Position numbers and translations under genes: made by a program
The notes under the pieces: generated by a model
The model's input: only the letters and a program-made list of their open reading frames with translations
The model's database searches: none
Told to the model about the DNA's origin: nothing
Origin: an uncultured Ignavibacteria bacterium
GTDB lineage: Bacteria; Zixibacteria; MSB-5A5; CAIYYT01
Length of the DNA: 64,000 nt
Direction of reading: 5' to 3'
NCBI GenBank assembly: GCA_964537215.1
Contig: CAZIBI010000002.1
Coordinates: forward strand, 64,001 to 128,000
In this document: piece by piece, positions 1 to 14,537 of the stretch
Numbering within the stretch: position 1 is the first letter of the stretch
Layout of the letters: each line of letters begins with the position of its first letter

Positions 1-6
1 CGCAGG

Positions 7-1008
7 TTGTATGAGCACCTATCCGGAGGAGCAACGTTCCACGCTCGCGACACTATTACCCAATTTCAAATCTCAGTGCACTTTCGAAATTGGCTTGATG
101 GAACTCCCGAGGCAGTGAGAGAACTGGAAGCTACAGACGTAGTACTTGGAGATCTTCATAAGTGGCAGGATAGACTGAATATCTCTGTGGATCTGGGTGT
201 TAGTGAAGGAGAGGTAGAAGAACTCCGAGAAACACGAGACCGAATGTATGCTGAAATGAAAGCGATTTTCGAGCGCTGGAGAGACGAGAAAGGGTACACG
301 TTTAAAGATCGGGTACTAGAGGAGGCAACCTCCTTTGGCAGGGCAACGTTTCAGAACTACATCCAATATTTGAAGCGATTTCGTGAAATCCATGCGGGCG
401 TACGCGAGCTTGGTCCCGAAGATGTGTTTCCACCGAGTTCGCAAATGTTGATTTCTTCAATGTTGGAGGAGATGAGGGGGCGAGAGATGACAATAGAAGT
501 GCAAATGCAGAAGCTCAGCGAATATTTTGCGGCTGAAAGTATCCTCGAAATCCCGTTCATCAGAATTTCTTCAATCTTGTATGCATCGATTGCACGCAAG
601 AGTGCTGCAGGGCAAATACGTCCACCGAGCCGAGGTGCATTTACCGACATAAATGCAATCGCAAGCATCTTGCCGTATGTCGACGCTATGTTCGTAGACG
701 ATGAAAATGCTGCTTACCTGAACGAGCGACCGGCATCAGAAATGCTTGGGTACCAGACAAAGATCTTCTCAAATAACACGCGAGAAGAGTTCTTGGCTTA
801 TCTCGAGAAAATCGAAAGGGATGCAGATCCAAAGCAACTTGAACTAGTCCGCGAGATTTATGGAGAATGCGAACCGTATCTAAGTATTTTAGTGGATGAC
901 CGTGCCAAACGAGAGAGTGAACCACCAAAGAAATTGCGACCTTCGATCGAACAAAGCTTAAAGGAGGTAAAACAGCGTCTGCAAAGAGGTGGCGACCAGA
1001 CTCCTTGA
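7..1008 (+). CDS. Hypothetical protein, 5'-partial. The reading frame is open to the window start and the first listed codon is TTG. No recognisable domain.
   Basis: Long ORF of 333 aa with coding-like composition. It lies immediately upstream of direct repeat A and the RloC-like ATPase gene. No motif recognised by eye. Confidence 0.55.
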   Translation: MYEHLSGGATFHARDTITQFQISVHFRNWLDGTPEAVRELEATDVVLGDLHKWQDRLNISVDLGVSEGEVEELRETRDRMYAEMKAIFERWRDEKGYTFKDRVLEEATSFGRATFQNYIQYLKRFREIHAGVRELGPEDVFPPSSQMLISSMLEEMRGREMTIEVQMQKLSEYFAAESILEIPFIRISSILYASIARKSAAGQIRPPSRGAFTDINAIASILPYVDAMFVDDENAAYLNERPASEMLGYQTKIFSNNTREEFLAYLEKIERDADPKQLELVREIYGECEPYLSILVDDRAKRESEPPKKLRPSIEQSLKEVKQRLQRGGDQTP

Positions 1009-1039
1009 AATTTTTCACGCTTGCAATTGGGGTACTCAA

Positions 1040-1250
1040 GTTATCCACAGTTTGTGAGGAATATCGCTACTAATCGACAATTGATCGTTCAACTGGACGT
1101 GGCTATGCTGCATTTACCGCTCAATCAGTTATCCGCGATAATGCGACACTCTCCAGCGTCTGTTTGAACGTGGGTCGACCGGGGTTCAAGAGGTAAAAGG
1201 TTCGAACATCCTTCACCAGGGTGAACCAATGAGTTCCCAAGTATATGTTT
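1040..1250. repeat. Direct repeat A. An imperfect (~85% identical) copy of the 3' end plus downstream region of the serine recombinase gene; partner of repeat B at 3767-3957.
   Basis: Both start gttatccacag..gtgaggaatatcgctac..tcgacaattgatc and both end ...gtttgaacgtgggtcgaccggggtt.a..aggtaaaa.gttcgaacatccttcaccagggtgaacca. Similarity stops sharply after ggtgaacca in both copies. Confidence 0.85.
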
Positions 1251-1260
1251 TTCCTCATTA
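1121..1260 (-). pseudogene. Truncated remnant (C-terminal ~40 codons) of a serine recombinase gene inside repeat A.
   Basis: The minus-strand ORF fragment encodes ...WFTLVKDVRTFYLLNPGRPTFKQTLESVALSRITD. This is near-identical to the C-terminus of the intact 553-aa recombinase (…WFTLVKDVRTFYLLNPGRPTFKQTLEGVALSRLTD). There is no upstream catalytic domain. Confidence 0.6.
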
Positions 1261-1431
1261 CCTGTGGACAACGTATATCCGACGAAATCGGCGATTTTGG
1301 CACGACTTGACATTGACTTTTATGGTGTTTAGTAGCAAGTTGAACATAAGATCGTCAAAGGGAATCGTCTAATGAGCAAATTGACCAAATGCAAGACTCC
1401 ACTTTTCTAATAGGATTGGGCCTACGCACTA

Positions 1432-3729
1432 ATGATTAGAAGGATCAAGAAGATTCGGAATTTGGGATTGGTGTTCTCGAATTACTCTGAGAAAGCTACA
1501 CTCCCAGCCTTCAAGAGATTTAATCTCATTTTCGGATGGAATGGATGTGGGAAGACAACTCTGTCTCGACTCTTCGGTTCGATAAGTGGGGTAGAAAGTT
1601 CGGGCGTGGAGTACCAGCTTGAGGACGATGGCGGTGTTGTTCATAAACATGGCGACCCGTTCCCAACAAAGATTCGTGTATTCAATCAAGATTTCATTCG
1701 TGAAAATCTAAGCTTGATCGAGAGTCGAGCAAAAACGATTTCTCTGATTCTCGGGAAGGAGAATCAGAGCCTATTGAAGCAAATCGAGAAGGACAGGCTG
1801 CTGCTTGAAGGTGACCCCACGAATGGCACGCAAGGCAAATTGTCATTGTTTGCAGCCAGTGAAAAAGAGGTCACACAAGCCGAAAGTGCACGAGCAAATA
1901 CATTCACCGAAGTCGCAAGAACAGTGGGCGCTGCGATCGGTGGTAATGCACTTCGAGATTACAGACGGCCGCAGGCGGAAAGTGATTTCAATGGCATGCC
2001 TGCCAAGGCCGAGCTAACCGCAGTAGAACTGGAAAAGCAATTATTATCAGTCAAACAGCTCTCACTGTCCGAGATTGCAACTCTCTCACTTCCTAAAGTG
2101 TCCTTGTCCGATAAACAAGTCCAACATGAATTGTCTAATTTAGCAGGATTGATCAGTTCAAAGTCCAAAGAACTCCAAAGTCGAACCGTAGATTCTGAGA
2201 TTGTCGAGCGTCTTACTTCGAATCCTGATATTTCGGAGTGGGTCGAAGCCGGGCTGATTTTGCACCAGAAGCACTCGTCAAATAAGTGCGAGTACTGCAT
2301 GCAGCAAGTACCAATAAAGCGATCTGAGGAACTTGCACGCCACTTTAATGAAGCGGACAGACGGTTGAAGGAAGAAGTACGGGAGTCAATATCCGACTTG
2401 ACCAGTTTGCGAGAAGTAGTTGGCTCACTACGAATTCCGGATAAAGCGCGATTCTATACTGCACTTCAGGTTGATTTCCAAGCGAAGGCCAGTGCTTTTG
2501 AACGAGAGAAGACAGCGGCAGTCCGAAGTATTGATTCTTGCACTGAAGAACTAGTTGAAAAACTGAAAAAGACAACTGAATCAGTGATTGCTAAAGAGAA
2601 ACTAGACCTTGAGTCCCTTACAACTACTATTGGTCAGATTAATCTGTCAATTGATGCTCACAATAAGATTACAAACGATTTTGATAGCGTAAGAAATGAA
2701 GCCATCAAGAAATTGAAACAACATTATCTAAGTACAATCTATGATGGTGTAAGACAGCTGGATGGCGAGATCGCGACCAAATCAACATCAAGGGATCAAC
2801 TCAAGGCAGAGATTGATACGTTGAAAGCGAGTATTACTGACAATTTGGCAAAAATGTCATCAACTCAAAAAGCATGTGAAGAAATCAATCAGCGCCTTCG
2901 GACATTCCTTGGACACAGCGAATTGAGTTTTGTCCCACATAACGAGCAACGGACGAAGGACGACGGAACGATGGAAGAAGTAACATCGGGATACGATATT
3001 ATGCGAGGGAACGATCCGGCCACACTGTTGAGCGAAGGCGAAAAGACAGCCGTGGCATTTGCCTATTTTGTCGTCCAGCTCGCTGATCAGGAATTTGATG
3101 TCAGCGAAGGGATCATCGTAATAGATGACCCAATCTCAAGTCTAGATTCAAATTCGTTGTACCAAGCTTTTAGTTTCTTGAAGAACGCGGTCAAGGAGAG
3201 CAAGCAGGTCTTCATACTCACGCACAACTTTGAATTTCTGAAGTTGTTAATTAACTGGCTAAAGGGCGCAAGGGCCGATGCTGGTTACTATATGATAAAG
3301 AATCGCTACCAGGATGGGGTACGAAGTGCATATATCGATGCGATGGATAAAGAACTCTTCGACTATGAATCTGAATATCACTACTTGTTCAAGCTCCTAA
3401 AGCAGCTCAGTCTCGATCAAGACGGCACGCTTGCCAAAGCATATCCAGTTCCGAATATTGCAAGAAAAGTCTGGGAGACATTCTTAATGTTCAGGGTTCC
3501 TAATAGTAAGTCCCAATACATGAAAATGGATGAGTTGAAAAAGGCGGGACTCGATGCAGTTAAGTTGGATTCGATATATAAGTTCACCAATGACCAGTCC
3601 CACATCACTGGATCCGGTTTGAACCCGGCATTGGTTCCACAAGCAACAAAAGTGATCAATGAGATGTTTGAGATGATGGCGGCGGGCGCCCCAGATCATT
3701 TTCGGATTCTTGATGATGCTACGAATTAG
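1432..3729 (+). CDS. AAA_13-family ABC-type ATPase with a coiled-coil insert and CxxC zinc hook. RloC/PrrC-like putative tRNA anticodon nuclease or abortive-infection ATPase.
   Basis: The N-terminus NLGLVFSNYSEK...FKRFNLIFGWNGCGKTTLSRLF carries the Walker A motif. IRVFNQDF is the Q-loop region. A long coiled coil contains HSSNKCEYCMQQV (CxxC). The ABC signature is LSEGEKTAVAFAYF, Walker B is IIVIDDPISSLD and the H-loop is FILTHNFEF. The C-terminal domain has ARKVWE (R-x3-E) followed 42 residues later by NDQSH. Confidence 0.8.
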   Translation: MIRRIKKIRNLGLVFSNYSEKATLPAFKRFNLIFGWNGCGKTTLSRLFGSISGVESSGVEYQLEDDGGVVHKHGDPFPTKIRVFNQDFIRENLSLIESRAKTISLILGKENQSLLKQIEKDRLLLEGDPTNGTQGKLSLFAASEKEVTQAESARANTFTEVARTVGAAIGGNALRDYRRPQAESDFNGMPAKAELTAVELEKQLLSVKQLSLSEIATLSLPKVSLSDKQVQHELSNLAGLISSKSKELQSRTVDSEIVERLTSNPDISEWVEAGLILHQKHSSNKCEYCMQQVPIKRSEELARHFNEADRRLKEEVRESISDLTSLREVVGSLRIPDKARFYTALQVDFQAKASAFEREKTAAVRSIDSCTEELVEKLKKTTESVIAKEKLDLESLTTTIGQINLSIDAHNKITNDFDSVRNEAIKKLKQHYLSTIYDGVRQLDGEIATKSTSRDQLKAEIDTLKASITDNLAKMSSTQKACEEINQRLRTFLGHSELSFVPHNEQRTKDDGTMEEVTSGYDIMRGNDPATLLSEGEKTAVAFAYFVVQLADQEFDVSEGIIVIDDPISSLDSNSLYQAFSFLKNAVKESKQVFILTHNFEFLKLLINWLKGARADAGYYMIKNRYQDGVRSAYIDAMDKELFDYESEYHYLFKLLKQLSLDQDGTLAKAYPVPNIARKVWETFLMFRVPNSKSQYMKMDELKKAGLDAVKLDSIYKFTNDQSHITGSGLNPALVPQATKVINEMFEMMAAGAPDHFRILDDATN

Positions 3730-3766
3730 TCTTCAGAGTTACTTTCACCAGAGGGTAAATTAGAGT

Positions 3767-3957
3767 GGTTATCCACAGGTAGTGAGGAATATCGCTACTT
3801 TTCGACAATTGATCATTTAGATAGACGAGCTACGATGACTTCACCGCTCAATCTGTCAGTCGCGATAATGCAACACCTTCAAGTGTTTGTTTGAACGTGG
3901 GTCGACCGGGGTTTAGCAGGTAAAAAGTTCGAACATCCTTCACCAGGGTGAACCAGC
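3767..3957. repeat. Direct repeat B. It overlaps the last ~110 bp of the serine recombinase coding sequence plus ~80 bp downstream of its stop codon.
   Basis: Alignable to 1040-1250 over ~195 bp at ~85% identity. Confidence 0.85.
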
Positions 3958-5509
3958 TCGAAATTCCAGCCCGGACAGGGGTAGCAACTGCTTTAGGCAA
4001 AGCACGAATCAGTGGTTCGAACTGCAGCTTTTGCACCGCATGAGAGAGAAGCGCGTTCTGGATCAACTTGAACGGTTTTTCCGGCTGAATACTGAGGATA
4101 CCGTCCTTTAGGGAAAGTTTCGAACCGCAGTGCCGGAGTATTGCTCGCTTCTGTTCCAGCGATCCCTGATCAAACTGCTCTTGCGCTCTGGAAGCAAATT
4201 CGAACGCGTCTTCACACGAACGGAAGACGTGGTCAAAACGACTGTCATTGTCTTCAAGCAATTCTTTCAATCGCACCCGCTCCGATTCCAGTTCGTTCTT
4301 TTTCGCCAGATATTCGTCATCACTTAGGATGTTTCGCAATCGCAAGCCGAGCAGTTCGGTGATTTCGAATTGGGAGGCCTCATACCGATGGTGAAGCGCT
4401 TTCAATGCCTTGCTGCCCTTTTCACTTTCCTCATCGTGGAGCTCGCGAAGAACCTCAAGCGTCCAGTCTCGGAGTTTTTTGCTGATGGTTAAGGAGCGCA
4501 GGAAGCTGGAAATTTGCTTTTCAAGCGCGGCACGTTCAATAACTTTTTGAGAGCAGCGGACATTGCGCTTTCGTCGGGTGCAGTGGTAATAGACATACTT
4601 ATATCCATACCGTCGATTCTTCTTGTGCTCAGCCGTGATTGCTGCACCGCACTCGCCGCAGGTAATAAGACCGGTAAAAGCGAACGTGTACTCTTGTGGT
4701 CGAGGCCGGCTGGCCAGCCCGAGGATCTCCTGAACGCGATCAAATTCGGCCTTTGTAATCATTGGCTTCTGCGACCCCGGAAAGAGCTCCTTGTTATATC
4801 GAATCGCTCCGTAGTAAAACGGGTTCGTCAGAATACTGTAGATGGTAGAGTAATGCACGGGTCCGCCGCCGTAACGCGAAAACTGTCGCGTTCGCAGCCC
4901 CAGCTGATTTGTTGCGACTTCCAGCACACCCATTGGGGTATACGTTCCTGTGAGCATGAGATCCCACATCTTGCGAACCAGCAGAAATCGTTCTGGATCA
5001 GGAATGACCGTTCGGGAATTGCGGTCATTCAAATATCCCAAGGGCGGCAAACCAGGCATCCAGCCCGATGCGATCTTGGCGCGAAGTCCGCGCTTCACAT
5101 TGTCTGATAGATCGTCCACATATTTTTTTGCCATCCCAAATTCGAGCTGCATCCAGAACTTATCGTTACCCGTGTTAAGGAAACTTCGTTGCGCCGTATG
5201 GATCGCTTTGAGATGCCCTTCTTCCATTGCCCAGATAAGCGCACCGCCATCGACAGGGTTTCGCGCCAGCCGGTCAAGCTTCCAACAAATGATGCCGTCA
5301 AGATCACCCTTTTGCACTTTACCGATCAGTTGCGTGAACACCGGCCGACCCGGAGCTTTAGCAGATTTCGATTCCGTAAAAACCGCATCAACCGCAAGAC
5401 CCTCCCTCCCGGCGTATTCTTGCAATTCACGAACTTGTGAATCAATCGACAGAACCTGTCTGTCCTCTGATTCACTCGACTTACGTGCGTAGATCGCGAT
5501 TTTCGGCAT
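3848..5509 (-). CDS. Large serine recombinase (resolvase/invertase-type catalytic domain, recombinase domain, zinc ribbon).
   Basis: The N-terminus is MPKIAIYARKSSESEDRQVLSIDSQ with the catalytic Ser. The motif ...WKLDRLARN follows. The central recombinase domain and the C-terminal Cys cluster CGECGAAI...YYHCTRRKR are present. Length is 553 aa. Confidence 0.9.
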   Translation of the reverse strand: MPKIAIYARKSSESEDRQVLSIDSQVRELQEYAGREGLAVDAVFTESKSAKAPGRPVFTQLIGKVQKGDLDGIICWKLDRLARNPVDGGALIWAMEEGHLKAIHTAQRSFLNTGNDKFWMQLEFGMAKKYVDDLSDNVKRGLRAKIASGWMPGLPPLGYLNDRNSRTVIPDPERFLLVRKMWDLMLTGTYTPMGVLEVATNQLGLRTRQFSRYGGGPVHYSTIYSILTNPFYYGAIRYNKELFPGSQKPMITKAEFDRVQEILGLASRPRPQEYTFAFTGLITCGECGAAITAEHKKNRRYGYKYVYYHCTRRKRNVRCSQKVIERAALEKQISSFLRSLTISKKLRDWTLEVLRELHDEESEKGSKALKALHHRYEASQFEITELLGLRLRNILSDDEYLAKKNELESERVRLKELLEDNDSRFDHVFRSCEDAFEFASRAQEQFDQGSLEQKRAILRHCGSKLSLKDGILSIQPEKPFKLIQNALLSHAVQKLQFEPLIRALPKAVATPVRAGISSWFTLVKDVRTFYLLNPGRPTFKQTLEGVALSRLTD

Positions 5510-5769
5510 GGGAGATTATGGTAAGTAGTCTAACTGTACCAAGCCGGCAGCCGAAGACACAACTTCTAAGATGTTCGAACCTTTTTGTCGTCGTCAGGGG
5601 ACTTGTGGAGTAATAGTCGGAACAGATTTGTGAGCCGCAAAGCCATCGCCCACGCCTCTTTGTCGTTCAATTCACAGTGAAACTCTTGCCTATAGATGCA
5701 TTTGAGCTGATCGATATGGTGTTGCTGAAGTGGCATAGTCAGCACAGTATGGAGGATTGAACACCGGTG

Positions 5770-5975
5770 AAAAGTGAGGAATATCACCTAAAAGGAACTT
5801 CGGGGTGTGGATAACCCGAATTGGGTACTATTTCCGAAGATACCGCAAGCTTGTTGGTCCTCTCATTTGAATTGCCAGCGTTCGGTTACTCTTCGGCGGC
5901 GAAACCGGAAATGCATTTTTGCGAACAATTCCTCACTGATGTCCACAGGAGCAAGTTCTTTTCGACAATTGAAGG
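5770..5975. promoter_or_regulatory. Cluster of short motifs shared with repeats A and B, lying in the region between the recombinase start codon and the HTH gene. Candidate recombinase binding or recombination subsites.
   Basis: agtgaggaatatc at ~5773-5785. tgtggataacc (inverted copy of ggttatccaca) at ~5806-5816. attcctcac (inverted gtgaggaat) at ~5929. tccacagg plus cttttcgacaattga at ~5942-5974. The same tccacag..ttttcgacaattga arrangement occurs at 1043-1084 and 3771-3813. Confidence 0.4.
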
Positions 5976-6018
5976 GGTTTTGTCATGGGATTACGCTAAT
6001 TTTGCACTCTTAAAACCC

Positions 6019-6297
6019 ATGCTACGTCCCATAAACAACCGCGTTCCGAACAGTATCCGATATTACCGGCGTCGTGCCAATATGCGGCTCTTTGAGTTGG
6101 CACACTACGTCGGAATTTCGAGTCCGGCAAACCTGGCGAATTGGGAAATGGGCAGGAAGATGCCATCAGCCGACAATCTACTGAAACTCTCCGCGGTGCT
6201 CATGGTGCCGCCGGAAATTCTCTTTCTCGGTCGCCTGAAACAACTCCGTGAACAAATCAAAGCTCGCAAAGATCAACCAATAAAGAAACCACTATGA
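6019..6297 (+). CDS. XRE-family helix-turn-helix DNA-binding protein.
   Basis: IRYYRRRANMRLFELAHYVGISSPANLANWEMGRKMPSADNLLKLSAVLMV fits the XRE HTH pattern. The stop codon overlaps the start of the next ORF (ctATGAgc). Confidence 0.6.
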   Translation: MLRPINNRVPNSIRYYRRRANMRLFELAHYVGISSPANLANWEMGRKMPSADNLLKLSAVLMVPPEILFLGRLKQLREQIKARKDQPIKKPL

Positions 6298-6551
6298 GCA
6301 CGAATCTCCCGATTCCATTCGTTCCGAAAAGTGCTGCAGATGCCCTGGCGCTCCAGATCGCGCAGTCGTTCGATGACGAAGAGCGATTGCCTATTTATCG
6401 GCGTGCGTGTGCCACTCATAATCAGAGTGTGGTGTATCGAGCTTATCGTGAGGCTCTACAGGTGCCGGCAGAGAAGGTGCGGAAATCGCGACGAGCCATT
6501 TTCTTCTTCATCCTGCACACCTATGAAGACGAAAATAGTGCTCGGCATTGA
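6294..6551 (+). CDS. Small hypothetical protein (85 aa), translationally coupled to the HTH and RuvC-like genes.
   Basis: ORF overlaps both neighbours (ATGA overlap upstream, ~29-bp overlap downstream). No recognisable motif. Confidence 0.4.
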   Translation: MSTNLPIPFVPKSAADALALQIAQSFDDEERLPIYRRACATHNQSVVYRAYREALQVPAEKVRKSRRAIFFFILHTYEDENSARH

Positions 6552-7047
6552 CTATGGTACGCGTGAATTTGGCTACGCCACTTTCCACGATGGCCGACTG
6601 CAGGATTGGAATGTCAAGTCGTTGCGCCGGACATTACCTCGACGAGATCGACTCATTGTCCTCCGACACGCATTCACAAGATTATTAATTGATACCCAGC
6701 CAGGGGTGATGGCAATGACAAGACACGAAACTGCCCACAACGACAAGCTGCAGATTATGCCAAAAGTCGACAGGATTATGAAATCCATCGCTGCCGAGCG
6801 CAGCATAGCAATTCATCAGTTTGACCCGGTGACTGTCAAGAAAGCTGTTACCGGCGACTCCAAAGCGACGAAGCGTATGGAAGCCAAGGGGGTTGTCGCA
6901 CTCTTTCCGGAAGTCCGGCTGTATCTCAACGAGGCAGGCTGGCAAGAGCGCTACTTGCAGAGAATGTTCGGGGCGATTGCTGCCGGATCCACCTATTTCG
7001 CTCTCTTCGAGAACCCGCCAGACCATGAGCAACCTAACCAACAGTAA
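6523..7047 (+). CDS. RuvC-like (RNase H-fold) Holliday-junction resolvase family protein.
   Basis: KIVLGIDYGTREFGYATFHDGRLQ resembles the RuvC N-terminus ILGIDPGSRVTGYGV. LIDTQPGVMAMTRHE resembles the FQPDYFAIEQVF segment carrying the catalytic Glu. AVTGDSKATKRMEAKGVVALF resembles [20 protein letters not shown]. The C-terminal acidic pair is not clearly conserved. Confidence 0.5.
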   Translation: MKTKIVLGIDYGTREFGYATFHDGRLQDWNVKSLRRTLPRRDRLIVLRHAFTRLLIDTQPGVMAMTRHETAHNDKLQIMPKVDRIMKSIAAERSIAIHQFDPVTVKKAVTGDSKATKRMEAKGVVALFPEVRLYLNEAGWQERYLQRMFGAIAAGSTYFALFENPPDHEQPNQQ

Positions 7048-8023
7048 GCGGACGCGGACAACACGGCGGCCGGTTGCAATTACGATTCGCGATCGGGCAA
7101 TGCTACTTGCACTAATTGAATTTCGCGTGCTTTCGACAGAGCAGATTCGTTGGTTGTTCTTTCCTTCAATCCATCGCACGCGGAAACGACTGTACTTGCT
7201 GTGGCGCCACGGTTTCCTTCGACGAGCTACTCGCCCGACCCGAATTGGGGAAGGGTCGGCGCAATTCCTGTACGCGCTTTCGGCCAAAGGGCGGCGACTC
7301 GTTGGCGACCAGAGCCTGCGACTCCGGCCGCAGTTGACCGATCCAAAGAAATTCAGTGAACATAGCCAGCTTATCAACAACCTCCATATTTGTCTGTTGC
7401 TCGTCGAACGTGCCGCCGATGACTTTTCCGTCCGGCGGTGGGAGCAAGGCGCAAAGCTCAAAATGTTCGTCACGGCGATATCTGCGGCCATTTCAACGAC
7501 ATTGCCGATTATTCCAGATGCAATGTTTATCCTAACCTGCAGAGGCCGGGATTATTGTTTTTTCGCGGAAGTTGATCGCGGTCAAACCGACCTCAATCGA
7601 ATCGCAAGCAAATGCACCGGCTATTCATCGTTGTGGCGGCAGAAGTTACCACAACGTCAATTTGGCGTCCGGTCGTTTCGTGTACTTTACCTGACAACTG
7701 GCGGAAAGCGGCTTGTCCATATCCTCGAAAAGATCCGGGTGCAACTACGAAACTCTTCTTGCCCGGACTTGATCGCCGGTGTGAGCGGTAATGCCGTTTC
7801 GCTCCAAGAACCTGAAAGGCTCTTTTCGATGGCATGGCGGACAGTTGCCCTTTCAGGAGACATTGTTTCGAGCTGTCCGCTGCCAAGCCCTTCCTTTGTC
7901 CGCTCCCGCCAGCGCCTTGAACACCACTTGTGCGCTGACCAGAATCCTGATGCTAGCTGTAAGGAGACTCCGGGCTCGGTGGATGAGGGCAGCCCTCGTC
8001 TGCCGGGTAGCGGGAGCGGATAG
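7025..8023 (+). CDS. Replication-relaxation (Replic_Relax, PF13814-like) family protein, paralog 1.
   Basis: RDRAMLLALIEFRVLSTEQIRWLFFPSIHRTRKRLYLLWRHGFLRR is a typical winged-helix N-terminus of this family. The start overlaps the RuvC-like gene end. Chosen start is M45 of the listed ORF. Confidence 0.6.
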   Translation: MSNLTNSKRTRTTRRPVAITIRDRAMLLALIEFRVLSTEQIRWLFFPSIHRTRKRLYLLWRHGFLRRATRPTRIGEGSAQFLYALSAKGRRLVGDQSLRLRPQLTDPKKFSEHSQLINNLHICLLLVERAADDFSVRRWEQGAKLKMFVTAISAAISTTLPIIPDAMFILTCRGRDYCFFAEVDRGQTDLNRIASKCTGYSSLWRQKLPQRQFGVRSFRVLYLTTGGKRLVHILEKIRVQLRNSSCPDLIAGVSGNAVSLQEPERLFSMAWRTVALSGDIVSSCPLPSPSFVRSRQRLEHHLCADQNPDASCKETPGSVDEGSPRLPGSGSG

Positions 8024-8261
8024 GTGAAGATCGGATGGAAGTCTGTTTTTGTTTGTGGTGCCGTCGGCAACAAGTGCTATTCGACGGCCTGAATGCGCGC
8101 GTTCGTCGGTCGGCTGCGCTTCACGCCATGCTTCCGGTGGGGTCGTGGTTGGCAGGGAGTGCAAACCACGACGAAAAAGTAGCCGGGAAATAATCTCTAT
8201 TTCCCTTCTACTTTTTTCGGGGTGTAACCCCTTGTCCCACCTCCAGCATGTCGTTCGCTTT

Positions 8262-8510
8262 GCCTCCCGACTCCACCATTTTTCCCGAGTCCTTTCTTCC
8301 TGCGCTTGGCGTCATTATATTGTGGGTGCGCCAAGCGCTGGAGCTTGGAAAGGACTCGGCTTTGCCGGTCGGCTCGGAAGCCGACATCGCCGCCGCTTAG
8401 CTTTTTGGTGGGTGCGGCGGCTCGGCGTCGGTCGGCGGCCATCCAACGGAGTTGGTCGTTTTAGCGGAGCCGTTGTCTGGCCTTGACGAAAAATGGTGGA
8501 GTCGGGAGGC
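8262..8510. repeat. Nested inverted repeats (large imperfect palindrome/cruciform) in a GC-rich intergenic region.
   Basis: Outer perfect 23-bp inverted repeat: gcctcccgactccaccatttttc (~8262-8284) and gaaaaatggtggagtcgggaggc (~8488-8510). Inner 12-bp inverted repeat: ccgagtcctttc (~8285-8296) and gaaaggactcgg (~8348-8359). Innermost 10-bp inverted repeat: gcgcttggcg (~8302-8311) and cgccaagcgc (~8329-8338), with the AT-rich loop tcattatattgtgggtg. Two further hairpins lie inside: gtcggct-cgga-agccgac (~8368-8388) and gccgccgc...gcggcggc (~8390-8430). Confidence 0.8.
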
Positions 8511-8622
8511 ATCGCGTGGCTATCACCCCGCCGTTGCGGCGAGGTTCCCGCGCCCCCTGCTCGTTGCCGACCCGGGGCGCGGAGCCACGCGGCCTCCGAC
8601 GAACGCGCGCAGAGAAAGACAG

Positions 8623-9771
8623 ATGAGGGAAGAGGACAGTTTGAAAGACCTACCGCTAAAGAGAAAACTGAAGGCATTCCGACCGAACGGACGCGATCGT
8701 TCGATCCTGCAGTATGTCGCCGACTATCGGTTCATGAGCATTGAGTTGCTCGCGGCGTTGATCGTTGCGCCGCCGGTACCGGGACGCACGTATGGATTCA
8801 GCGAATCGGCGCTCCGGGCACGATGTCAAAAGCTTCGAGATAATGACTTTCTTAACTGGCAATTTTTGCATGACTTGCCTACAGGTCGGGGTTTGCATAC
8901 CGAGCGACCAGCGGTGTACTCCATTGGTCCGGCGGCGCTCGATCTCTTAGAAGAAGAATTCGGCTTCAGCCGCGAGCAACTCAAGCAGTCGCTCGAGAAG
9001 AACAAACTGAGCTCAATGTTTCTCCGCCATTTCCTGATGATCAGCAAGTTCCATGTTTGCTTGGAACTGGCGTGCCGTCAAACCGCCAACGGCGGTATTG
9101 ATGCCGGCGTCGCCGGAGATCTCTCCGGTATGACGGTTGAAATTGGCACTTGGCTACAGGACGGACTGGTTGACCGCGTTCGTGTTACAGTCGGCGACGT
9201 AGTCGAGACGATACCGGTGGTGCCGGATGCTGTTTTCAATCTGGTCATTCGCAAATCAGACGGCTCGGTTACGGTGAAACATTTTGCGCTCGAGGCGGAC
9301 AGGGGGACGATGCCGATGCGGAGCATTACGAAGAAAGCAACTGGCTATTGGCAGTACATCCGGCGGGGATTGCAAAAACGCCGATATACATACTATGGAG
9401 AACATGGCGCGGGACCGGAATTGCGGGTTGTCAATCCGAACTTGAAATGGGATGCGATTCCAAAGGGCGAGCAAGAGAACATTCTGCGATACGGGATCGA
9501 TGATCTAACAGTCTTATTTGTCACCCGTGGGGAATCGCCTGACGTGAAGTCCCTGAAGGAGAAGTCCCAGCTCACACGCAAGCGCCAGAGCAGTATCCTT
9601 GAGGCGGTAAGACGGGTAGAAGGTATCGATCCATCTTCCGACACGTTCGTCTTTTGTACTGAAGGATTGGATTTCGATGTAAAAAGCGCGGCAGCGTTAT
9701 TCGAATCGATTTGGCAATCGTGTCGTGAAGAGCCCCTCAGATCGAAGTTGATACCAACCCGTGCGGAGTGA
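8623..9771 (+). CDS. Replication-relaxation (Replic_Relax-like) family protein, paralog 2.
   Basis: RDRSILQYVADYRFMSIELLAALIV...FLNWQFLH parallels the N-terminus of paralog 1. The listed ORF starts at 8452 inside the palindrome, so the internal Met (MREEDSLKDL) is chosen as start. Confidence 0.55.
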   Translation: MREEDSLKDLPLKRKLKAFRPNGRDRSILQYVADYRFMSIELLAALIVAPPVPGRTYGFSESALRARCQKLRDNDFLNWQFLHDLPTGRGLHTERPAVYSIGPAALDLLEEEFGFSREQLKQSLEKNKLSSMFLRHFLMISKFHVCLELACRQTANGGIDAGVAGDLSGMTVEIGTWLQDGLVDRVRVTVGDVVETIPVVPDAVFNLVIRKSDGSVTVKHFALEADRGTMPMRSITKKATGYWQYIRRGLQKRRYTYYGEHGAGPELRVVNPNLKWDAIPKGEQENILRYGIDDLTVLFVTRGESPDVKSLKEKSQLTRKRQSSILEAVRRVEGIDPSSDTFVFCTEGLDFDVKSAAALFESIWQSCREEPLRSKLIPTRAE

Positions 9772-9858
9772 TCTCAAGTCATCCAAACCCGGTCGCAAAT
9801 TTTTGTGAAAACAATCACGTGAATCCTAAAAAAAATTGACAACATTTGTCGATTCTTC

Positions 9859-9887
9859 TTGCTTTTCTTGGAAACTGGGATTATCAT
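9859..9887 (+). promoter_or_regulatory. Candidate sigma70-like promoter (ttgctt -35, 17 nt spacer, tatcat -10).
   Basis: Sequence inspection only. It lies in a 0.75 kb ORF-free region. A second candidate (ttgaca at 10082-10087, taatta -10) follows the terminator. Confidence 0.25.
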
Positions 9888-9894
9888 CGCATAC

Positions 9895-10072
9895 GTGGTA
9901 ACCGGCACTAGCTCAGAGCTCAAATCGGCGCGTTCGTTGCGCCCCGAGGAGGGTTGATCTGGTGTTCAGAGGAGATTAACCACAAACAGAGGAGGAATTA
10001 CGATCCTCTCTAGCGCTTTTCGCTCATTATTACTTTGATTGGTCGCGGCCGGGAAACTGGCCGCTTTTTTTA
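9895..10072 (+). ncRNA. Candidate small transcript (~180 nt) running from the promoter-like element to an intrinsic terminator. Function unknown.
   Basis: No ORF is listed in 9772-10519. The terminator at 10045-10072 is clear. Internal complementarity exists (gaggagg...cctctc). Confidence 0.2.
10045..10072 (+). terminator. Rho-independent terminator.
   Basis: gcggccgg-gaaa-ctggccgc stem followed by ttttttt. Confidence 0.65.
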
Positions 10073-10223
10073 TGAAATGTCTTGACAAGACCGTCAATCC
10101 AACGCTAATTAAAGCAACCAATCAAAGTAATCTCGTGGATTTCCCACACATCCTTTAAGTATGTCCAATTGTTACGCGCGGTTTTCATGCTTTCCGTGTG
10201 CGGTTTTGAAGAAAACCATCCAT

Positions 10224-10274
10224 AAAAAAGCACCCCGACTAGAGAATGCTTTGCACACAAGGCTCCAGTCGGGG
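10224..10274 (-). terminator. Possible minus-strand intrinsic terminator.
   Basis: The hairpin ccccgact ...(27 nt)... agtcgggg is followed by a T-run on the minus strand (the plus strand has aaaaaag upstream). The large loop makes this uncertain. Confidence 0.3.
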
Positions 10275-10655
10275 CTCACAGCAGAACGCTGCTTAATCGG
10301 TTAAGATAGCTGTTTTATTTTTCATGTCCACATGAATTTTAGAACAGGCTGTTTTTGCCGTCAAGCCTGCCGATCTGCGCTTCGTCCACCAAATAGGGCG
10401 AGGCATTCCTCAGTGACACAGCATCCATAGGAGTCAGCAATGCTTCGCTGCAATATGGATATCTATATCGAGGCCGCAATTCCGCTAATCGAAGCTGCAA
10501 TTGTGGTGGTGCCGTCGGATTGGACTGCTTTAGGTCCAGCGAAGGTCGCGTTCTGTTGCTTGTTGACGATCTACATCTTGTCTCGCCGCCGTCAACAGTA
10601 GCAGTTGTCCATCGATTTCTGAATTTGAAACGGATAATTTTGGAGGAAATAACAA

Positions 10656-10876
10656 TGTCTCACAGAGACGACTATGATGACGGATTTGATGACGGTATCG
10701 CTGCCGCCATCATTGGGGGCCTGGCTATTTATGGGGCGTTTAAGATTGTCGAAAAACTCAGGGAAACCCCTGAGCAGCGGCTGCTGAACAACCTTGGTCG
10801 TGATCTCAAGCAGCTTGATTCCGGAGTGTATGACGGGTATGACGACGATGAGGAGGACGAGGATGAGGCCGAGTAA
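10656..10876 (+). CDS. Small acidic membrane protein (73 aa).
   Basis: A good RBS (ttggaggaaataacaATG) is present. It has one hydrophobic helix, AAAIIGGLAIYGAFKIV, and an acidic tail, DDDEEDEDEAE. Confidence 0.4.
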
Positions 10877-11315
10877 GGTTCTCCGTATCGCTCACGAAGT
10901 TTTGGCTATCCGTCGGAAGATCGTTACTTCCCATATTGAGAATCGAAACCGCGTGGCTCTGCAACGATCCGAGATGGAAGTCCAGCTTAACAAGCAAAGA
11001 CTTGAATCCGCCCAATATCGGTTTGGTGTTATCGAACTACTTGCAAAGGTCAAGCAGATGACGCCACCGGCGCCAATCGATCCGGTGGAAGAAATCCAGC
11101 AGCGCGAACGCCGTGTCATGGCGGATTTGTCCGCCAAGGCGAACATTCGCGCCGCCGCCGAGAAGGCACTTCGTGATCAGGCTGCTCAAGCCGCATTTGA
11201 CCGCGCCGACTTCATCGCTCAGGTGAAGCGTGACTTGCCAGAGGAATCTTGGGCGGAGATCATCGACGACTATGACCGCCGCGTGTATGAAAGCACACAA
11301 GAGGAGACGTCGTGA
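10863..11315 (+). CDS. Coiled-coil hypothetical protein (~150 aa).
   Basis: ORF overlaps the previous stop. The sequence is heptad-like and charged. No domain recognised. Confidence 0.35.
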   Translation: MRPSKVLRIAHEVLAIRRKIVTSHIENRNRVALQRSEMEVQLNKQRLESAQYRFGVIELLAKVKQMTPPAPIDPVEEIQQRERRVMADLSAKANIRAAAEKALRDQAAQAAFDRADFIAQVKRDLPEESWAEIIDDYDRRVYESTQEETS

Positions 11316-11650
11316 CGCCGTTTTGTATTGGCGTGGATCGCAACACAGGACGCAGCGTAACGCTGCGTCCAGATGTTCTCTTCGCGCACGGCTTGATAGC
11401 GGGCGGAACAGGCATGGGGAAGAGCCAGCTTGCAAACGCTCTCTGCCGCCATTGTCTGCACGCGGGCATTCCGTTTGTCTATCTTGATCCTCATGGCGAC
11501 ACCTACCACGACCTTGTTGCCTATGCCACTGCCCGTCGGGTCCAGAACCGCCTTGTGACGATTGACGCCAATCTGGCGGCGGATACGTTTGTATTTCCAC
11601 TAAATTTCTGCTGCCGAATGGCTTGGATTCGGCAACGCAGGGAGCGATGA
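11312..11650 (+). CDS. N-terminal fragment (Walker A part) of an FtsK/HerA/TraD-like P-loop ATPase (type IV coupling-protein-like). It is split from the next ORF by an apparent frameshift.
   Basis: GGTGMGKSQLANAL carries the Walker A motif, followed by FVYLDPHGD. The frame ends at 11650 while the next frame opens at ~11604. Confidence 0.5.
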   Translation: MTPFCIGVDRNTGRSVTLRPDVLFAHGLIAGGTGMGKSQLANALCRHCLHAGIPFVYLDPHGDTYHDLVAYATARRVQNRLVTIDANLAADTFVFPLNFCCRMAWIRQRRER

Positions 11651-13092
11651 TCATGAAAGCAATGGCAAAAGTATTTGGCGAACAGGACGCGGAAACGAAG
11701 CCGCGTCTCGAACGCCGTGGGCGGGACACGTTCATTGCCTTGATCGAAGCAGGATTGACGCTTGCCGAAATGCTCGACTTCCTCTCCATCGATGACGATC
11801 GTTTTCGTAAGCACGTGCTTGGCCGAGTTTCGAATCCGTATGTTCGCGCTGAGTGGCAGGAATTTGACTCCATTGCAAGGCGATCAGACCGCGAAGCAAT
11901 GCTCGAGTCGACACTCAATCGCGCCGCCAAAGTCATTCTCAGTGATGCAATCCGACGCGTCTTTGGGACAGCAACGAATAATCTCGATTGGGAGAAAGTT
12001 CGGCGCGAGAATTTGGCGGTAGTTGTCAATCTCCAGCCGCAAAAAGTTGCAAGAGAAGCCCAGCAACTGCTCGGTACAATGCTGCTAGATCACTTGGCGA
12101 ACTACGCCATGCAGCAGACGAAAAGGGAGAATAAGATGTTTGTCATCGCTGACGAAATGGACGAATTGGCTAGTCCCGACTTCGCCTTGATGTTCCAAGC
12201 GTTTCGAAAGCGAGGCATTTTCTGCTGGCCGCTACTGCAGTATTTACAGCAACTGCGTTCGCGTGACGAGTCAAATCGTCTCTACGCGGCCGCAATGACG
12301 TGTTCGGACGTCAAGGTCGTCTTCCGTACATCGTACGAGGATGCGGCGCTTCTGGCGCGCGAACTTTTTCCCGGAGCATTCCGGGGCGACATTGTTAAGG
12401 ACGAGTTATTTCGGACACTGCTTTTGCCTAAGGAGTCGCAGCGTACTGTCGTTGGCTCGTCGGAAAGCGAAAGTGAATCGACGAGTGAGAGTGAGAGCGT
12501 TTCCGAGTTCGAAGGCACCGGCGTTGGCAGCACCAATGTCGACGGTATCGCCAGCGCCGAAGGTCAGACTTTCGGCGGTATGTACGGTGACGTTCTGCAA
12601 TCGTCCGAGCTATCAAGCCTGAACAGTGTTTCCGGTGCCTCCTCCTCATCGATGTCAGGTTCGACTCGATCTTCTTCAACCACCCGCAGTCATTCACGCG
12701 GCCACTCCCGGTCCAAGGCAGTTGTTCCGTTCTATGAATATGAACACGCCAAAGAGTTGGGTGGACGGCAGTATTTCAGTGTCGAAGAGGAATTGGAAAA
12801 GCGAATCTATGCTATCCAAAGCCAGGTGCGGCGCGAAGCGATCCTGAAAGTAGGAAACGCACCGGCAATTCACATTCTCACAACGTTCATCAAGCCGGTG
12901 CGCATTCGACCGCAGGATCTGCAGAGAACATTCGACCTGCTCGCGCGGAAATATGCACTGCCGGTTGAAGTCGTCGATGCCGCGATTGCGGAACGTCGGC
13001 GGCTTGCAGTTTCGACATCGGCGGGTGATATCGGCGTCGACAACAAGCAGATTGTCGCCTATCTCTTCAAACCGCAAAGGAGGAAACGATGA
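11623..13092 (+). CDS. C-terminal part of the FtsK/HerA/TraD-like ATPase (Walker B region) with a Ser/Glu-rich low-complexity tail.
   Basis: MFVIADEMDELAS is the Walker B DExx motif. The low-complexity segment SSESESESTSESESVSE...SSSSMSGSTRSSSTTRSHSRGHSRSK follows. Confidence 0.55.
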   Translation: MDSATQGAMIMKAMAKVFGEQDAETKPRLERRGRDTFIALIEAGLTLAEMLDFLSIDDDRFRKHVLGRVSNPYVRAEWQEFDSIARRSDREAMLESTLNRAAKVILSDAIRRVFGTATNNLDWEKVRRENLAVVVNLQPQKVAREAQQLLGTMLLDHLANYAMQQTKRENKMFVIADEMDELASPDFALMFQAFRKRGIFCWPLLQYLQQLRSRDESNRLYAAAMTCSDVKVVFRTSYEDAALLARELFPGAFRGDIVKDELFRTLLLPKESQRTVVGSSESESESTSESESVSEFEGTGVGSTNVDGIASAEGQTFGGMYGDVLQSSELSSLNSVSGASSSSMSGSTRSSSTTRSHSRGHSRSKAVVPFYEYEHAKELGGRQYFSVEEELEKRIYAIQSQVRREAILKVGNAPAIHILTTFIKPVRIRPQDLQRTFDLLARKYALPVEVVDAAIAERRRLAVSTSAGDIGVDNKQIVAYLFKPQRRKR

Positions 13093-13277
13093 AACGGGAA
13101 CGCGAATTTTTGAGTAAACGGGAAGTCGCTGAGATGTTGAATTTGAGCATCTTTACAATCGATTCTTGGGTTTCGCAACGGCGCGAAATACCATTTATCA
13201 AGATGGGAAGGAACGTCAGGTTTGACATTCGAGATGTCCGAGCCTGGCTAGAGAAGCGGAAGTTCAACCCCGAGTAA
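13089..13277 (+). CDS. Excisionase/AlpA-like helix-turn-helix protein (Xis-like).
   Basis: LSKREVAEMLNLSIFTIDSWVSQRREIPFIKMGRNVRFDIRDVRAWL fits the MerR/Xis-type HTH pattern. A strong RBS (aggagg) is present and the gene sits immediately upstream of the integrase. Confidence 0.65.
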   Translation: MKREREFLSKREVAEMLNLSIFTIDSWVSQRREIPFIKMGRNVRFDIRDVRAWLEKRKFNPE

Positions 13278-13349
13278 TGCGTTTTGGACGACGCCGGTCG
13301 GAATATCATTGCTGACCGGCGTTTTTTTGTGCTTATTGGCAAGAATTGG

Positions 13350-14465
13350 ATGGAAACTATGGCAGTCATCAAGCGCGGAAATACTTGGTACATTGACTAC
13401 TACAGCGGCGGCAGGCGCTTCCGGGAGGCCATCGGCTCCAACCGGAAAATGGCCGAGCGCGTGTTGGCGAAGCGGCAAGTTGAAATCGCCGAAGGCCGCT
13501 TCCTCGACGTCAAGAAGCAGTCAACGGCGACGTTTGACGACATCGCGAAATCGTTCATGGAGTACTCGCACAGTAACAAATTGTCCTTCGAGCGCGACGA
13601 ACGCTGCATCAAGCTGCTGCGCGAACACTTCGGCGGCAAGATACTCGACGAGATTACGCCACTGGAAATCGAGAAGTACAAGTCGGCGCGCCGGAAGATT
13701 GTCGGACCGGCCACCGTCAACAAGGAACTCGCATGTTTCAAGACGATGTTCTCCAAAGCGGTCATCTGGGGTTTGGCGAATCAAAATCCGGTGAAGAAAG
13801 TTTCGATGTTTCGCGAGCCGCCCGGCAGGGTGCGATTTCTTTCTCGCGAAGAAATTAGACGCTTACTGAGCGAGGCGGCCGATCACATTCGACCAATCAT
13901 CATCGTCGCGTTGTTCACCGGTATGCGGAAGAGCGAAATCCTCAAATTGACATGGAAAGACATCGACTTCAACCTACGGCTCATCTATGTTCGCAACTCC
14001 AAGAATAACTCGGCCCGCGAAATACCAATGGCCAGGGAAGTCGTCACCGCACTGCAATCCATACCGGTGTCGAAAGGTCGAGTCTTCACCAGCAGCGACG
14101 ACCGGCCGGTTTCGAGCATTCGCACAGGATTTGATAACGCTGTCAAGCGAGCGCAGATTTCGGATTTTTCATTTCACGATATCAGACATACTTTTGCGTC
14201 GTACCTTGTGATGAACGGTGTTGAATTGTTTACCGTGAAGGAACTACTCGGTCACAAATCGATTTCGATGACGACAAGGTATTCCCATTTGAGTCCGGCG
14301 CATAAAGGGCGCGCCGTTGAGACGCTCGATTTTCTGGGTAGTCACAAATTGGTCACAAACAGTGACACCAAGGTTGCGCAAGACAAGCTAAATCGTTATC
14401 GTTCAACAATTGCCGGAGTGGCGAAATTGGTAGACGCAAGGGACTTAAAATCCCTCGTGTGGTGA
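13350..14465 (+). CDS. Tyrosine site-specific integrase (phage-integrase family).
   Basis: The arm-binding-like N-terminus is VIKRGNTWYIDYYSGGRRFRE. The catalytic region is ...FHDIRHTFASYLVMNGVELFTVKELLGHKSISMTTRYSHL (R...HxxR...Y). The C-terminal ~18 codons are encoded by the 5' half of tRNA-Leu. Confidence 0.9.
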   Translation: METMAVIKRGNTWYIDYYSGGRRFREAIGSNRKMAERVLAKRQVEIAEGRFLDVKKQSTATFDDIAKSFMEYSHSNKLSFERDERCIKLLREHFGGKILDEITPLEIEKYKSARRKIVGPATVNKELACFKTMFSKAVIWGLANQNPVKKVSMFREPPGRVRFLSREEIRRLLSEAADHIRPIIIVALFTGMRKSEILKLTWKDIDFNLRLIYVRNSKNNSAREIPMAREVVTALQSIPVSKGRVFTSSDDRPVSSIRTGFDNAVKRAQISDFSFHDIRHTFASYLVMNGVELFTVKELLGHKSISMTTRYSHLSPAHKGRAVETLDFLGSHKLVTNSDTKVAQDKLNRYRSTIAGVAKLVDARDLKSLVW

Positions 14466-14497
14466 CACACGTACCGGTTCGATTCCGGTCTCCGGCA
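14412..14497 (+). tRNA. tRNA-Leu (anticodon UAA), type II with a long variable arm. No encoded CCA.
   Basis: Manual fold: acceptor GCCGGAG/CTCCGGC. D-arm GCG-AAATTGGTAGA-CGC. Anticodon arm AGGGA-CTTAAAA-TCCCT. Variable arm GTGTG-gtga-CACAC. T-arm ACCGG-TTCGATT-CCGGT. Discriminator A. Confidence 0.9.
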
Positions 14498-14537
14498 TAT
14501 TGTAAATGGGACAAATCTAGATTGCTGAATTGGGAGA

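Follow-up and report, generated by a model that had tools for sequence, protein, structure and literature searches.

Direct repeats behind a large serine recombinase gene separate exchangeable defence genes and point to a recombinase-linked cassette system

The 64,000-nucleotide stretch analysed here (positions 64,001 to 128,000 of contig CAZIBI010000002.1, assembly GCA_964537215.1, from an uncultured Ignavibacteria bacterium; hereafter the window) carries near its start a gene for a large serine recombinase (LSR), a gene for an ATPase, and several copies of a short motif that lie around both genes. The question that this locus raises is whether the motif is the site on which the recombinase acts, as a preliminary description of the sequence had proposed, or an element of another kind, such as a promoter or an operator. 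We found that the motif is the outer end of a longer repeat, R, which separates exchangeable anti-phage defence genes in a mobile element, and this points to a recombinase-linked cassette system. Our preferred reading, to which we give slightly less than even credence, is that the 45-bp core of R is the recombination site of the LSR at cassette junctions, in an array similar to those of the staphylococcal cassette chromosomes (SCC), and that the core overlaps the promoter/operator of a gene for an XRE-family regulator.

The motif has three parts, X (GTTATCCACAG), Y (GTGAGGAATATC) and Z (TTTTCGACAATTGA), and every string previously quoted for it was located in the window, including the extra copies at 5773-5785 and 5805-5815. 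Site A (1040-1084, plus strand; nhmmer E = 2.8e-12) and site B (3768-3812, plus strand; E = 4.5e-13), the latter 36 bp past the stop codon of the LSR gene, are 45-mers of the form X-N3-Y-N5-Z and are identical at 41 of 45 positions. Three copies in direct orientation had been described; of these, site C (5929-5972, plus strand) is a shorter and rearranged variant, with an exact Z at 5959-5972, an X-like GATGTCCACAG at 5938-5948 and an inverted TTCCTCAC at 5929-5936. The spacing between Z and X is about 13 bp shorter in this C-type site than in A and B, no Y lies between them, and the fragment of Y is found inverted beyond X; promoter-like TTGAAG (5969-5974) and TACGCT (5992-5997) follow. Upstream of the operon formed by a 56-aa open reading frame (ORF) and the LSR gene, a further Y (AGTGAGGAATATC, 5773-5785, plus strand) is accompanied by an inverted X (GTTATCCACAC, 5805-5815), with conservation in two related elements described below, L002 (9695-9736) and L013 (1103-1113). 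An inverted X-Y copy that had been overlooked (1251-1272, minus strand; profile E = 0.012) lies on the ATPase-proximal side of the first copy of R; its 22 nt are 91% complementary to positions 3768-3789, and together with the adjoining palindrome CCGATTTCGTCGG it forms a stretch (1251-1298) whose sequence resembles a C-type site.

Allowing at most one mismatch, the 64-kb window contains three copies of Y against 0.27 expected, and five of X against 0.60 expected, a number equalled in 0 of 100 shuffles. Z is present in two exact copies and one copy with two mismatches, all within 1040-5975, and a 45-mer profile gives E values of about 1e-12 at A and B and no further significant match in the window. 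A chance occurrence of the motif is ruled out by these shuffle counts and by the profile. The order of site A, ATPase, site B, recombinase and site C is as it had been described, and the motifs are restricted to the neighbourhood of the recombinase, occurring only at 1040-5975 of the 64 kb.

Where A and B had been regarded as isolated short sites, they proved to be the ends of the direct repeat R, which is 188-189 bp long (1040-1228 and 3768-3955, about 85% identical) and reaches the 3' end of the recombinase gene. According to the comparison of the repeats and their translation, the second copy, R_B (3768-3955, minus strand), contains core B, a remnant of an XRE gene, and the functional last 35 codons of the LSR gene (3848-3955). 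Since R overlaps these 35 codons in copy B, copy A (R_A, 1040-1228, minus strand) holds an orphan LSR tail, that is, the last 35 codons and the stop (1121-1228), followed by an antisense XRE remnant and core A. In a tblastn comparison the orphan tail reads THWFTLVKDVRTFYLLNPGRPTFKQTLESVALSRITD before its stop, against SSWFTL...EGVALSRLTD in the intact gene; the two tails differ in 12 codons, 10 of them synonymously and 2 non-synonymously, and in all the orphan tails compared the reading frame is kept, with synonymous to non-synonymous differences of 10:2, 10:2 and 8:1. Promoter-like hexamers occur in both copies, as TTGATC (1081-1086) and TATGCT (1104-1109) in R_A and as TTGATC (3809-3814) and TACGAT (3831-3836) in R_B.

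Longer copies of R are found at the first and second sites (s1 and s2) of L002, at s1 of L013, and in L009 and L028, with about 260 bp extra in the L002-type copies, and these long forms contain an intact antisense XRE gene (HTH_31, 3e-07). By this comparison the short R of the window is a deletion remnant of the long, XRE-bearing form, and the R module as a whole consists of the C-terminal 35 codons of the LSR, a small antisense XRE regulator gene and the promoter region of that gene, with the motif as its outer 45 bp. An Rfam search of R returned no match at E <= 1, and the idea of a known RNA family within the repeat was rejected. As a separate observation, a 16-nt stretch of R, GATGTTCGAACCTTTT, which contains the palindrome GTTCGAAC, recurs inverted at 5570-5585, in the gap that separates the stop of the 56-aa ORF from the start codon of the LSR gene.

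Related elements were sought in the DNA around several homologues of the LSR, and those that bear the core encode LSRs from 92% down to 61% identical to that of the window. The 45-mer occurs with the same length and orientation in five of them: L002 (LSR 92%; cores at 11957, 15760 and 19552), L013 (about 90%; 3366 and 6151), L009 (7437), L027 (64%; 11732 and 12586) and L028 (61%; 11957 and 15149). A profile built from the sites found no significant match beyond these core positions in the approximately 232 kb scanned. This motif search over the contig and its relatives had been named in advance as the check on which the proposal should stand or fall, and it found the sites conserved in orthologous elements; since the profile finds only LSR-linked positions, neither a genome-wide occurrence of the motif nor a lack of conservation was observed.

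The cargo bounded by the cores is rich in defence genes. Between A and B, the window carries the ATPase gene (1432-3729, plus strand; Pfam AAA_13, 1.5e-122), which matches the PADLOC candidate defence family PDC-S06 (3.8e-223). L002, from a metagenome-assembled genome (MAG) labelled Ignavibacteria, is syntenic with the window from tRNA-Leu to the LSR gene and then shows three cores in the same orientation, by which its cargo is split into a CBASS-type cassette (cyclase, 4TM effector, DUF2188, S24 peptidase) and an AbiEi/AbiEii cassette. The last of these cores adjoins a CHAP/dockerin gene in DNA that does not belong to the element, which makes the core a terminus of the element as well. The two cores of L013, a metagenomic sequence, lie around an AbiEii cassette and ahead of a second block, which encodes a large P-loop ATPase (weak NACHT and AAA_29 matches), DUF5655, YgjP and HsdR. 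L009 has its core after a truncated LSR gene, and the second cassette of L002 follows directly; an IS630-like DDE_3 transposase (5625-6854) replaces this LSR gene except for about its last 250 nt, and the R unit and the downstream AbiE cassette are intact despite the insertion. A repeat of at least 320 bp, made up of the LSR tail and the core, is present on either side of an AbiE cassette in L028. L027 has two cores, with a pseudo-copy of the 56-aa ORF between them (12210-12340, 80-91% identical, containing a stop) and a Gabija-like pair beyond; its s2 core has no LSR tail and adjoins the pseudo-copy, which suggests a decayed second LSR unit in tandem. The sequence of the core has diverged in L027 and L028, with exactly 45 bp kept (TCAATTGCCGA..GGCAA..CTGTGGAnAAC), and in both of them the Z region is a palindrome, TTGCCGA-N2-4-TCGGCAA.

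Tandem arrays of site-bounded cassettes, most of them without a recombinase, are seen in the window (two sites plus C), L002 (three sites), and L013, L028 and L027 (two each). Sequence, length, orientation and position of the core are kept even where the LSRs are only 61-64% identical, and each core follows an LSR 3' end, be it that of the gene or an orphan, except for the s2 core of L027, which lies beside the pseudo-copy. Close relatives differ by whole cargo-plus-R units.

Two features of the joints bear most directly on the role of the core. The first is that at ten R-type sites the cargo-side sequences are unrelated and diverge within 1 nt after ...GGATAA(C/G); different cargos abut the core at the identical nucleotide, and new joints of such uniformity are beyond what homologous exchange can produce. 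The second comes from the comparison of L009, in which the order is recombinase, R and cassette 2, with L002, in which it is recombinase, s1, cassette 1, s2 and cassette 2. Up to ..GTACTTAT the site of L009 agrees with s1 at 14 of the 15 informative positions, and from CCTC[A]GTAT..AAG onward it agrees with s2, which places the switch inside the core, in or beside Y. For a switch in the last 25 bp of a 450-bp repeat, a site-specific event appears to fit better than homologous exchange. The preliminary description had likened the direct sites around genes to those of a cassette-excising serine recombinase; the likeness is borne out in part, in that the cores split defence cassettes and that one breakpoint falls in the core.

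The reading that we prefer would then run as follows. Copies of R in direct orientation would punctuate an array of defence cassettes that trails from the 3' end of the LSR gene and is itself nested in an integrative, mobilisable element beside tRNA-Leu. The LSR would recombine at the 45-bp core, with a crossover in or beside Y/X, and units of cargo plus R may leave as circles and re-insert beside the LSR gene or beside another unit, which would give rise to tandem arrays comparable to SCC accretion behind rlmH. The core may double as an XRE promoter/operator in which Z carries the -35 element, so that regulation of the recombinase module would be coupled to the site, and site C may be a short-spacer paralogue ahead of the backbone XRE gene. 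A length of 45 bp falls in the size range of LSR attachment (att) sites. There are two classes of sites with shared outer motifs, of 45 bp (R-type) and 32-35 bp (C-type), and no sites of hybrid attL/attR length were seen among them. In all five lineages the shared outer motifs stand 10-13 bp closer together in the C-type variant, which is also present upstream of the backbone XRE gene in L002, L013, L027 and L028.

Several observations weigh against this reading. LSRs usually recombine unlike partners (attP with attB) and not identical sites. The dyad symmetry of the core is weak by eye, with inner arms AGTAGCGA / AGTGAGGA matching at 5 of 8 positions; no dyad symmetry was seen between the Z and X halves in this comparison by eye, nor any conserved half-site or similarity in the cargo-side flanks. 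The argument from the breakpoint involves one pair of elements and two informative cargo-side positions, and the copies of R, which are 190-450 bp long, 78-90% identical and mosaic in their interiors, offer enough homology for RecA-dependent exchange. The core overlaps a promoter-like layout of fixed spacing at ten sites in three lineages, and X and Y occur in other, operator-like arrangements upstream of the 56-aa ORF/LSR operon. A crossover in the core does not account for the sharp inner boundary of R, which lies at a tryptophan codon of the LSR gene. Defence cargo stands behind the LSR gene without R repeats in the distant relatives L032 (53%) and L033 (60%); this lack of R repeats at a locus with defence cargo was also found in L003, where only a 21-bp direct repeat occurs, one copy on each side of the LSR gene, and in L025.

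Among documented systems, the SCC family comes closest. Its LSRs, CcrAB and CcrC, have been shown experimentally to excise single and tandem defence-carrying cassettes flanked by att repeats; many of the cassettes carry defence systems, and their att repeats lie at the 3' end of rlmH (PMC11470126). The resemblance to SCC and SCCmec of staphylococci lies in an LSR associated with tandem cassettes bounded by direct site repeats, in a single unit that encodes the recombinase, in cargo rich in anti-phage defence, and in a repeat that overlaps the 3' end of a gene. Unlike in SCC, the repeated gene end is here the recombinase's own and not that of rlmH, and no rlmH gene was found in the locus. The repeat is also of another size and content, since R takes up 190-450 bp with a regulator gene and its promoter, and the att/ISS sequence of SCC is shorter than 20 bp. 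In further contrast, characterised LSRs are only distant relatives of this one, the system is known here from sequence, its phylogenetic range is different, and the array is nested in a tRNA-Leu integrative element that encodes a tyrosine integrase of its own. Our literature searches found no description of this cassette arrangement.

The enzyme itself, of 553 aa (3848-5509, minus strand), had been described as a possible resolvase, and its architecture does not agree with this. It contains, in order, the Pfam domains Resolvase (PF00239, 4.6e-21), Recombinase (PF07508, 1.3e-08) and Zn_ribbon_recom (PF13408, 3e-12), which is the architecture of an LSR; its distant relatives in the PDB are the A118 and SPbeta (YokA) integrases, and more than 5,800 homologues were found. 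The sequence MPKIAIYARKSSESEDRQ... carries a Y-x-R-x-S context and is the predicted N-terminal catalytic serine motif. The direct site repeats and the cluster of motifs in the promoter region of the recombinase operon recall the serine resolvases and res sites of Tn3 and gamma-delta. Unlike in those systems, the enzyme has Recombinase and zinc-ribbon domains in place of a short C-terminal helix-turn-helix (HTH), no three-subsite res with paired 12-bp half-sites is evident, and the sites flank cargo at distances of 2.7-3.8 kb.

The main alternative, which we consider possible but less likely, is that the motif serves in transcription only. X, Y and Z would bind XRE regulators and RNA polymerase at three promoters, namely those of the R-borne XRE gene, the backbone XRE gene and the 56-aa ORF/LSR operon; the copies would stem from a duplication of R in an ancestor, the cassettes would be swapped by homologous recombination in the flanking copies of R, and the LSR would act elsewhere. 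A promoter-like layout is indeed found at a fixed position downstream of Z in ten sites, C-type sites and those of L027 and L028 included (TTGAnC, 16-18 nt, TAYGMT), and the ten-site alignment, which includes the C-type sites before the backbone XRE gene of five elements, gives CAATTGA, 17-20 nt and TACGCT. The ATG of the XRE regulator comes some tens of nt after the -10-like hexamer, and by this alignment the motif would lie at about -35 to -80 of the predicted XRE-gene promoters. Both a fixed position before an HTH gene and conserved hexamers are thus present, consistent with an XRE promoter/operator. An intact HTH_31/HTH_3 protein is encoded in the long form of R and starts about 45 nt downstream of Z, Z is palindromic in L027 and L028, X and Y are near all three promoters in varied orientation and spacing, and the mosaic interiors of R are as gene conversion predicts. 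The region 5770-5975, which had been likened to a multi-subsite res/att region, contains single copies of X and Y and no paired half-sites, and because the motif coincides with the XRE promoter-like layout, operators of divergent promoters fit these copies at least equally well.

What a role in transcription only leaves unexplained is that ten unrelated cargos join R at one nucleotide outside X, that the last core of L002 lies at the end of the element, and that the breakpoint between L009 and L002 lies so near the end of a 450-bp repeat, within its terminal 25 bp. A generic sigma-70 scan, moreover, called none of the proposed promoters and showed no enrichment over shuffles, a result that neither supports nor excludes them. 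The short motifs in varied orientation, the divergent promoters of HTH regulators and the palindrome over the -35 element are shared with the operator-promoter switches of the XRE/CI type; unlike the core, such operators do not normally mark exact cassette joints or the terminus of an element.

The inner end of R calls for an explanation of its own. It falls at the same Trp codon of the LSR gene in the window, L002 and L013; in L028, whose LSR is 61% identical, it falls at the corresponding Trp. The boundary sequence in the window lineage is TTCACC-CT-GGTGAA, a perfect 6-bp inverted repeat around CT, and just beyond the boundary lie the inverted X-Y in the window, a GGACAC..TGTCC palindrome in L002 and L013, and an AGACACAAGTGTCT palindrome in L028. 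As far as sequence comparison can tell, the boundary and the conserved tails suggest one of two origins: a further point of recombination within the LSR gene, or an ancient duplication together with gene conversion by the selected copy. One extension of these facts, which we consider improbable, is a serine-recombinase counterpart of the integron, in which the 3' segment of the LSR gene would be exchangeable, each cassette would bring a spare copy of it along with a regulator and a 45-bp site, and the insertion or loss of a cassette would rewrite the LSR tail. This would explain both the coding selection on the orphan tails and the shared start at the Trp codon down to 61% identity.

Still more doubtful in our view is a crossover inside the LSR gene itself as the operative event, at the inner boundary of R in the Trp codon of ..SSWFTLVKDVRTF.. 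(window 3955 and 1228), by which an incoming cassette would supply a replacement 3' end of the LSR gene and X-Y-Z would travel along as the XRE promoter. The sequences just upstream of the shared boundary codon differ, which implies at least three independent events at the same Trp; the in-frame orphan tails with their mostly synonymous differences, the perfect inverted repeat around CT and the palindromes just outside the boundary in the orphan copies also speak for it. Such a crossover predicts, however, that the R beside the LSR gene of L009 is s2-like throughout, whereas it is s1-like up to the core; the boundary sequence of L028 is not palindromic, the synonymous bias could also have arisen through gene conversion with a selected copy, and the s2 core of L027 is without any LSR tail.

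A comparison with true integrons shows the same mixture of likeness and difference. As in integrons, a platform recombinase gene is followed by a cassette array, each cassette ends in a conserved element, the cassettes are mostly promoter-proximal and of a single function, and their content varies among close relatives; chromosomal integrons, too, are known to carry defence cassettes. Unlike the adjoining enzyme here, which is a serine recombinase and lies about 8 kb from the tyrosine integrase at the tRNA, IntI belongs to the tyrosine recombinases, and the cassettes here follow the 3' end of the recombinase gene and include a part of that gene. Integron attC sites act as folded single strands, whereas the 45-bp core has no consistent hairpin: DNA folding of A, B and C gave z = 0.08, -2.43 and 0.70 and no shared structure. 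Membership among integrons, with attC-like hairpins, was rejected on account of the serine enzyme and the absence of hairpin sites. Arrays of modules separated by sites, with recombinase-less units moved in trans, are also known from accreted integrative elements (the cis-mobilisable elements, CIMEs, related to ICESt1/ICESt3) and from the pdif modules of Acinetobacter plasmids. These depend on tyrosine recombinases (Int, XerCD), with att cores or 28-bp dif-like sites as repeats, unlike the repeats found here, which consist of a recombinase-gene tail and a regulator gene.

Two further possibilities are very unlikely: that the inverted 22-bp X-Y copies (1251-1272 and 3768-3789) flip the ATPase cassette in a form of phase variation, or that the copies of X are DnaA boxes, either of a replication origin or of promoters under DnaA control. 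The inverted repeat concerned (I3), 91% complementary over 22 nt, does enclose the whole ATPase cassette; the cassette ends of L002, L013 and L028 share just 7-8 nt, by which the long inverted repeat is peculiar to the window and inversion was rejected as a general feature. At A, B and 5805-5815 the sequence of X is exactly TTATCCACA, and a scan of sequence collections with the pattern ATATTCCTCN5CTGTGGATAA (8 genome and 12 metagenome loci) also returned unrelated loci with ATCCACAG..CTGTGGAT pairs. On the other side, X decays to ..TCCCCAG in s2 of L027 and in R2 of L028, which breaks the consensus, relatives have TTTTCCCCA and TTATCCCCA variants, and no AT-rich unwinding region or iteron array was seen next to the sites of the window.

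Among the loci returned by the pattern scan, the true relatives are only L005/L007, which belong to the L002 contig, L009 and L013; the remainder (Eisenbergiella, Planctomycetota and others) are unrelated, lack Z and were set aside. Two unrelated conserved loci recur in this remainder, with ATCCACAG...ATATTCCTC...CTGTGGATAA or GTCCAC...CTGTGGATAA arrangements, one in L004, L008, L016, L019, L020 and L022 (Eisenbergiella and gut metagenomes) and the other in L006, L010, L014, L021 and L023 (Planctomycetota-type), and from their sequence they are possibly DnaA-box clusters. Scans of viral sequences gave nothing, or a single phage fragment, L030 (terminase, no LSR), which is probably a chance match.

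Least probable of all is that the repeats are att scars left by successive integrations of the tyrosine integrase at tRNA-Leu, with the LSR irrelevant. In its favour, the integrase gene does lie next to tRNA-Leu, at the opposite end of the element, tRNA genes are common places of tandem accretion, and a Z-like TTCAACAATTG precedes the tRNA. Repeats derived from the tRNA are largely refuted: neither the far end nor the internal sites contain a repeated piece of the tRNA, and the X-Y-Z likeness near the tRNA does not exceed chance, with 428 of 4568 control windows scoring equally. The core also flanks cassettes in L027 and L028 without a tRNA gene in their 21-kb loci and is, the s2 core of L027 apart, contiguous with the LSR tail.

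The array that we prefer to regard as LSR-linked belongs to a larger unit, as positions 1-14498 of the window are an integrative element beside tRNA-Leu, which is probably mobilisable. At its other end, the ORF of the tyrosine integrase (13284-14498, plus strand) runs into tRNA-Leu(taa) (14411-14498), and the homology of the window with L002 stops at the 3' end of the tRNA. The integrase ORF overlaps the tRNA gene by 55 nt, and in L002 the integrase gene as called (978-2120) spans the whole tRNA; given the overlap, the C-terminus of the integrase would be encoded across the attachment junction, in parallel to the LSR tail in the repeat. The element also encodes a TraG-like protein, two Replic_Relax proteins, a RuvC-like protein and an XRE regulator. 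Downstream of site C lies the backbone gene for an XRE-family (HTH_3) regulator (6019-6297, plus strand; Pfam HTH_3, 9.6e-09), whose product shares 29% identity with the R-borne XRE protein of L002. The 56-aa ORF immediately upstream of the LSR gene (5566-5736, minus strand) is conserved and matches no family, and a gene for 56-57 aa is present at the equivalent position in L003, L025 and L027. A 29-nt inverted repeat (8256-8284 and 8488-8516, 93% complementary, 203 nt apart) lies between the two Replic_Relax genes, with a 19-nt hairpin (8174-8216) nearby; this region could be an origin of transfer (oriT) or a terminator.

Two groups of relatives vary this layout. An extra block stands between the backbone XRE gene and the LSR gene in L028 (7320-9344) and L033 (6013-8534), which belong to lineages with LSRs 60-61% identical; it contains two or three ORFs and a Phage_integrase fragment of 193-217 aa, and from its position cargo would also be possible 5' of the LSR gene. 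L025/L026 (9283-14309) carry an XRE gene, small ORFs and an LSR gene (67% identical), followed by SocA/Panacea and GmrSD genes. Their contigs have no Replic_Relax or integrase backbone, which indicates that the LSR module can exist outside the tRNA-Leu element, and this LSR carries an NCBI Patescibacteria label.

The MAGs in which the relatives occur bear the labels Ignavibacteria, Zixibacteria and Patescibacteria. Should the core be the site of the LSR, uncultured lineages such as these would possess a compact and self-contained platform that gathers and shuffles anti-phage systems, and the SCC principle would extend far outside the staphylococci, with a different architecture. The 45-bp signature and the LSR tail would then delimit the cassettes and could be used for mining new defence genes, and the LSR and its site would be a new pair of possible use in genome engineering. 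The conservation of the orphan recombinase tails, finally, raises the question of recombination within the enzyme's own gene.

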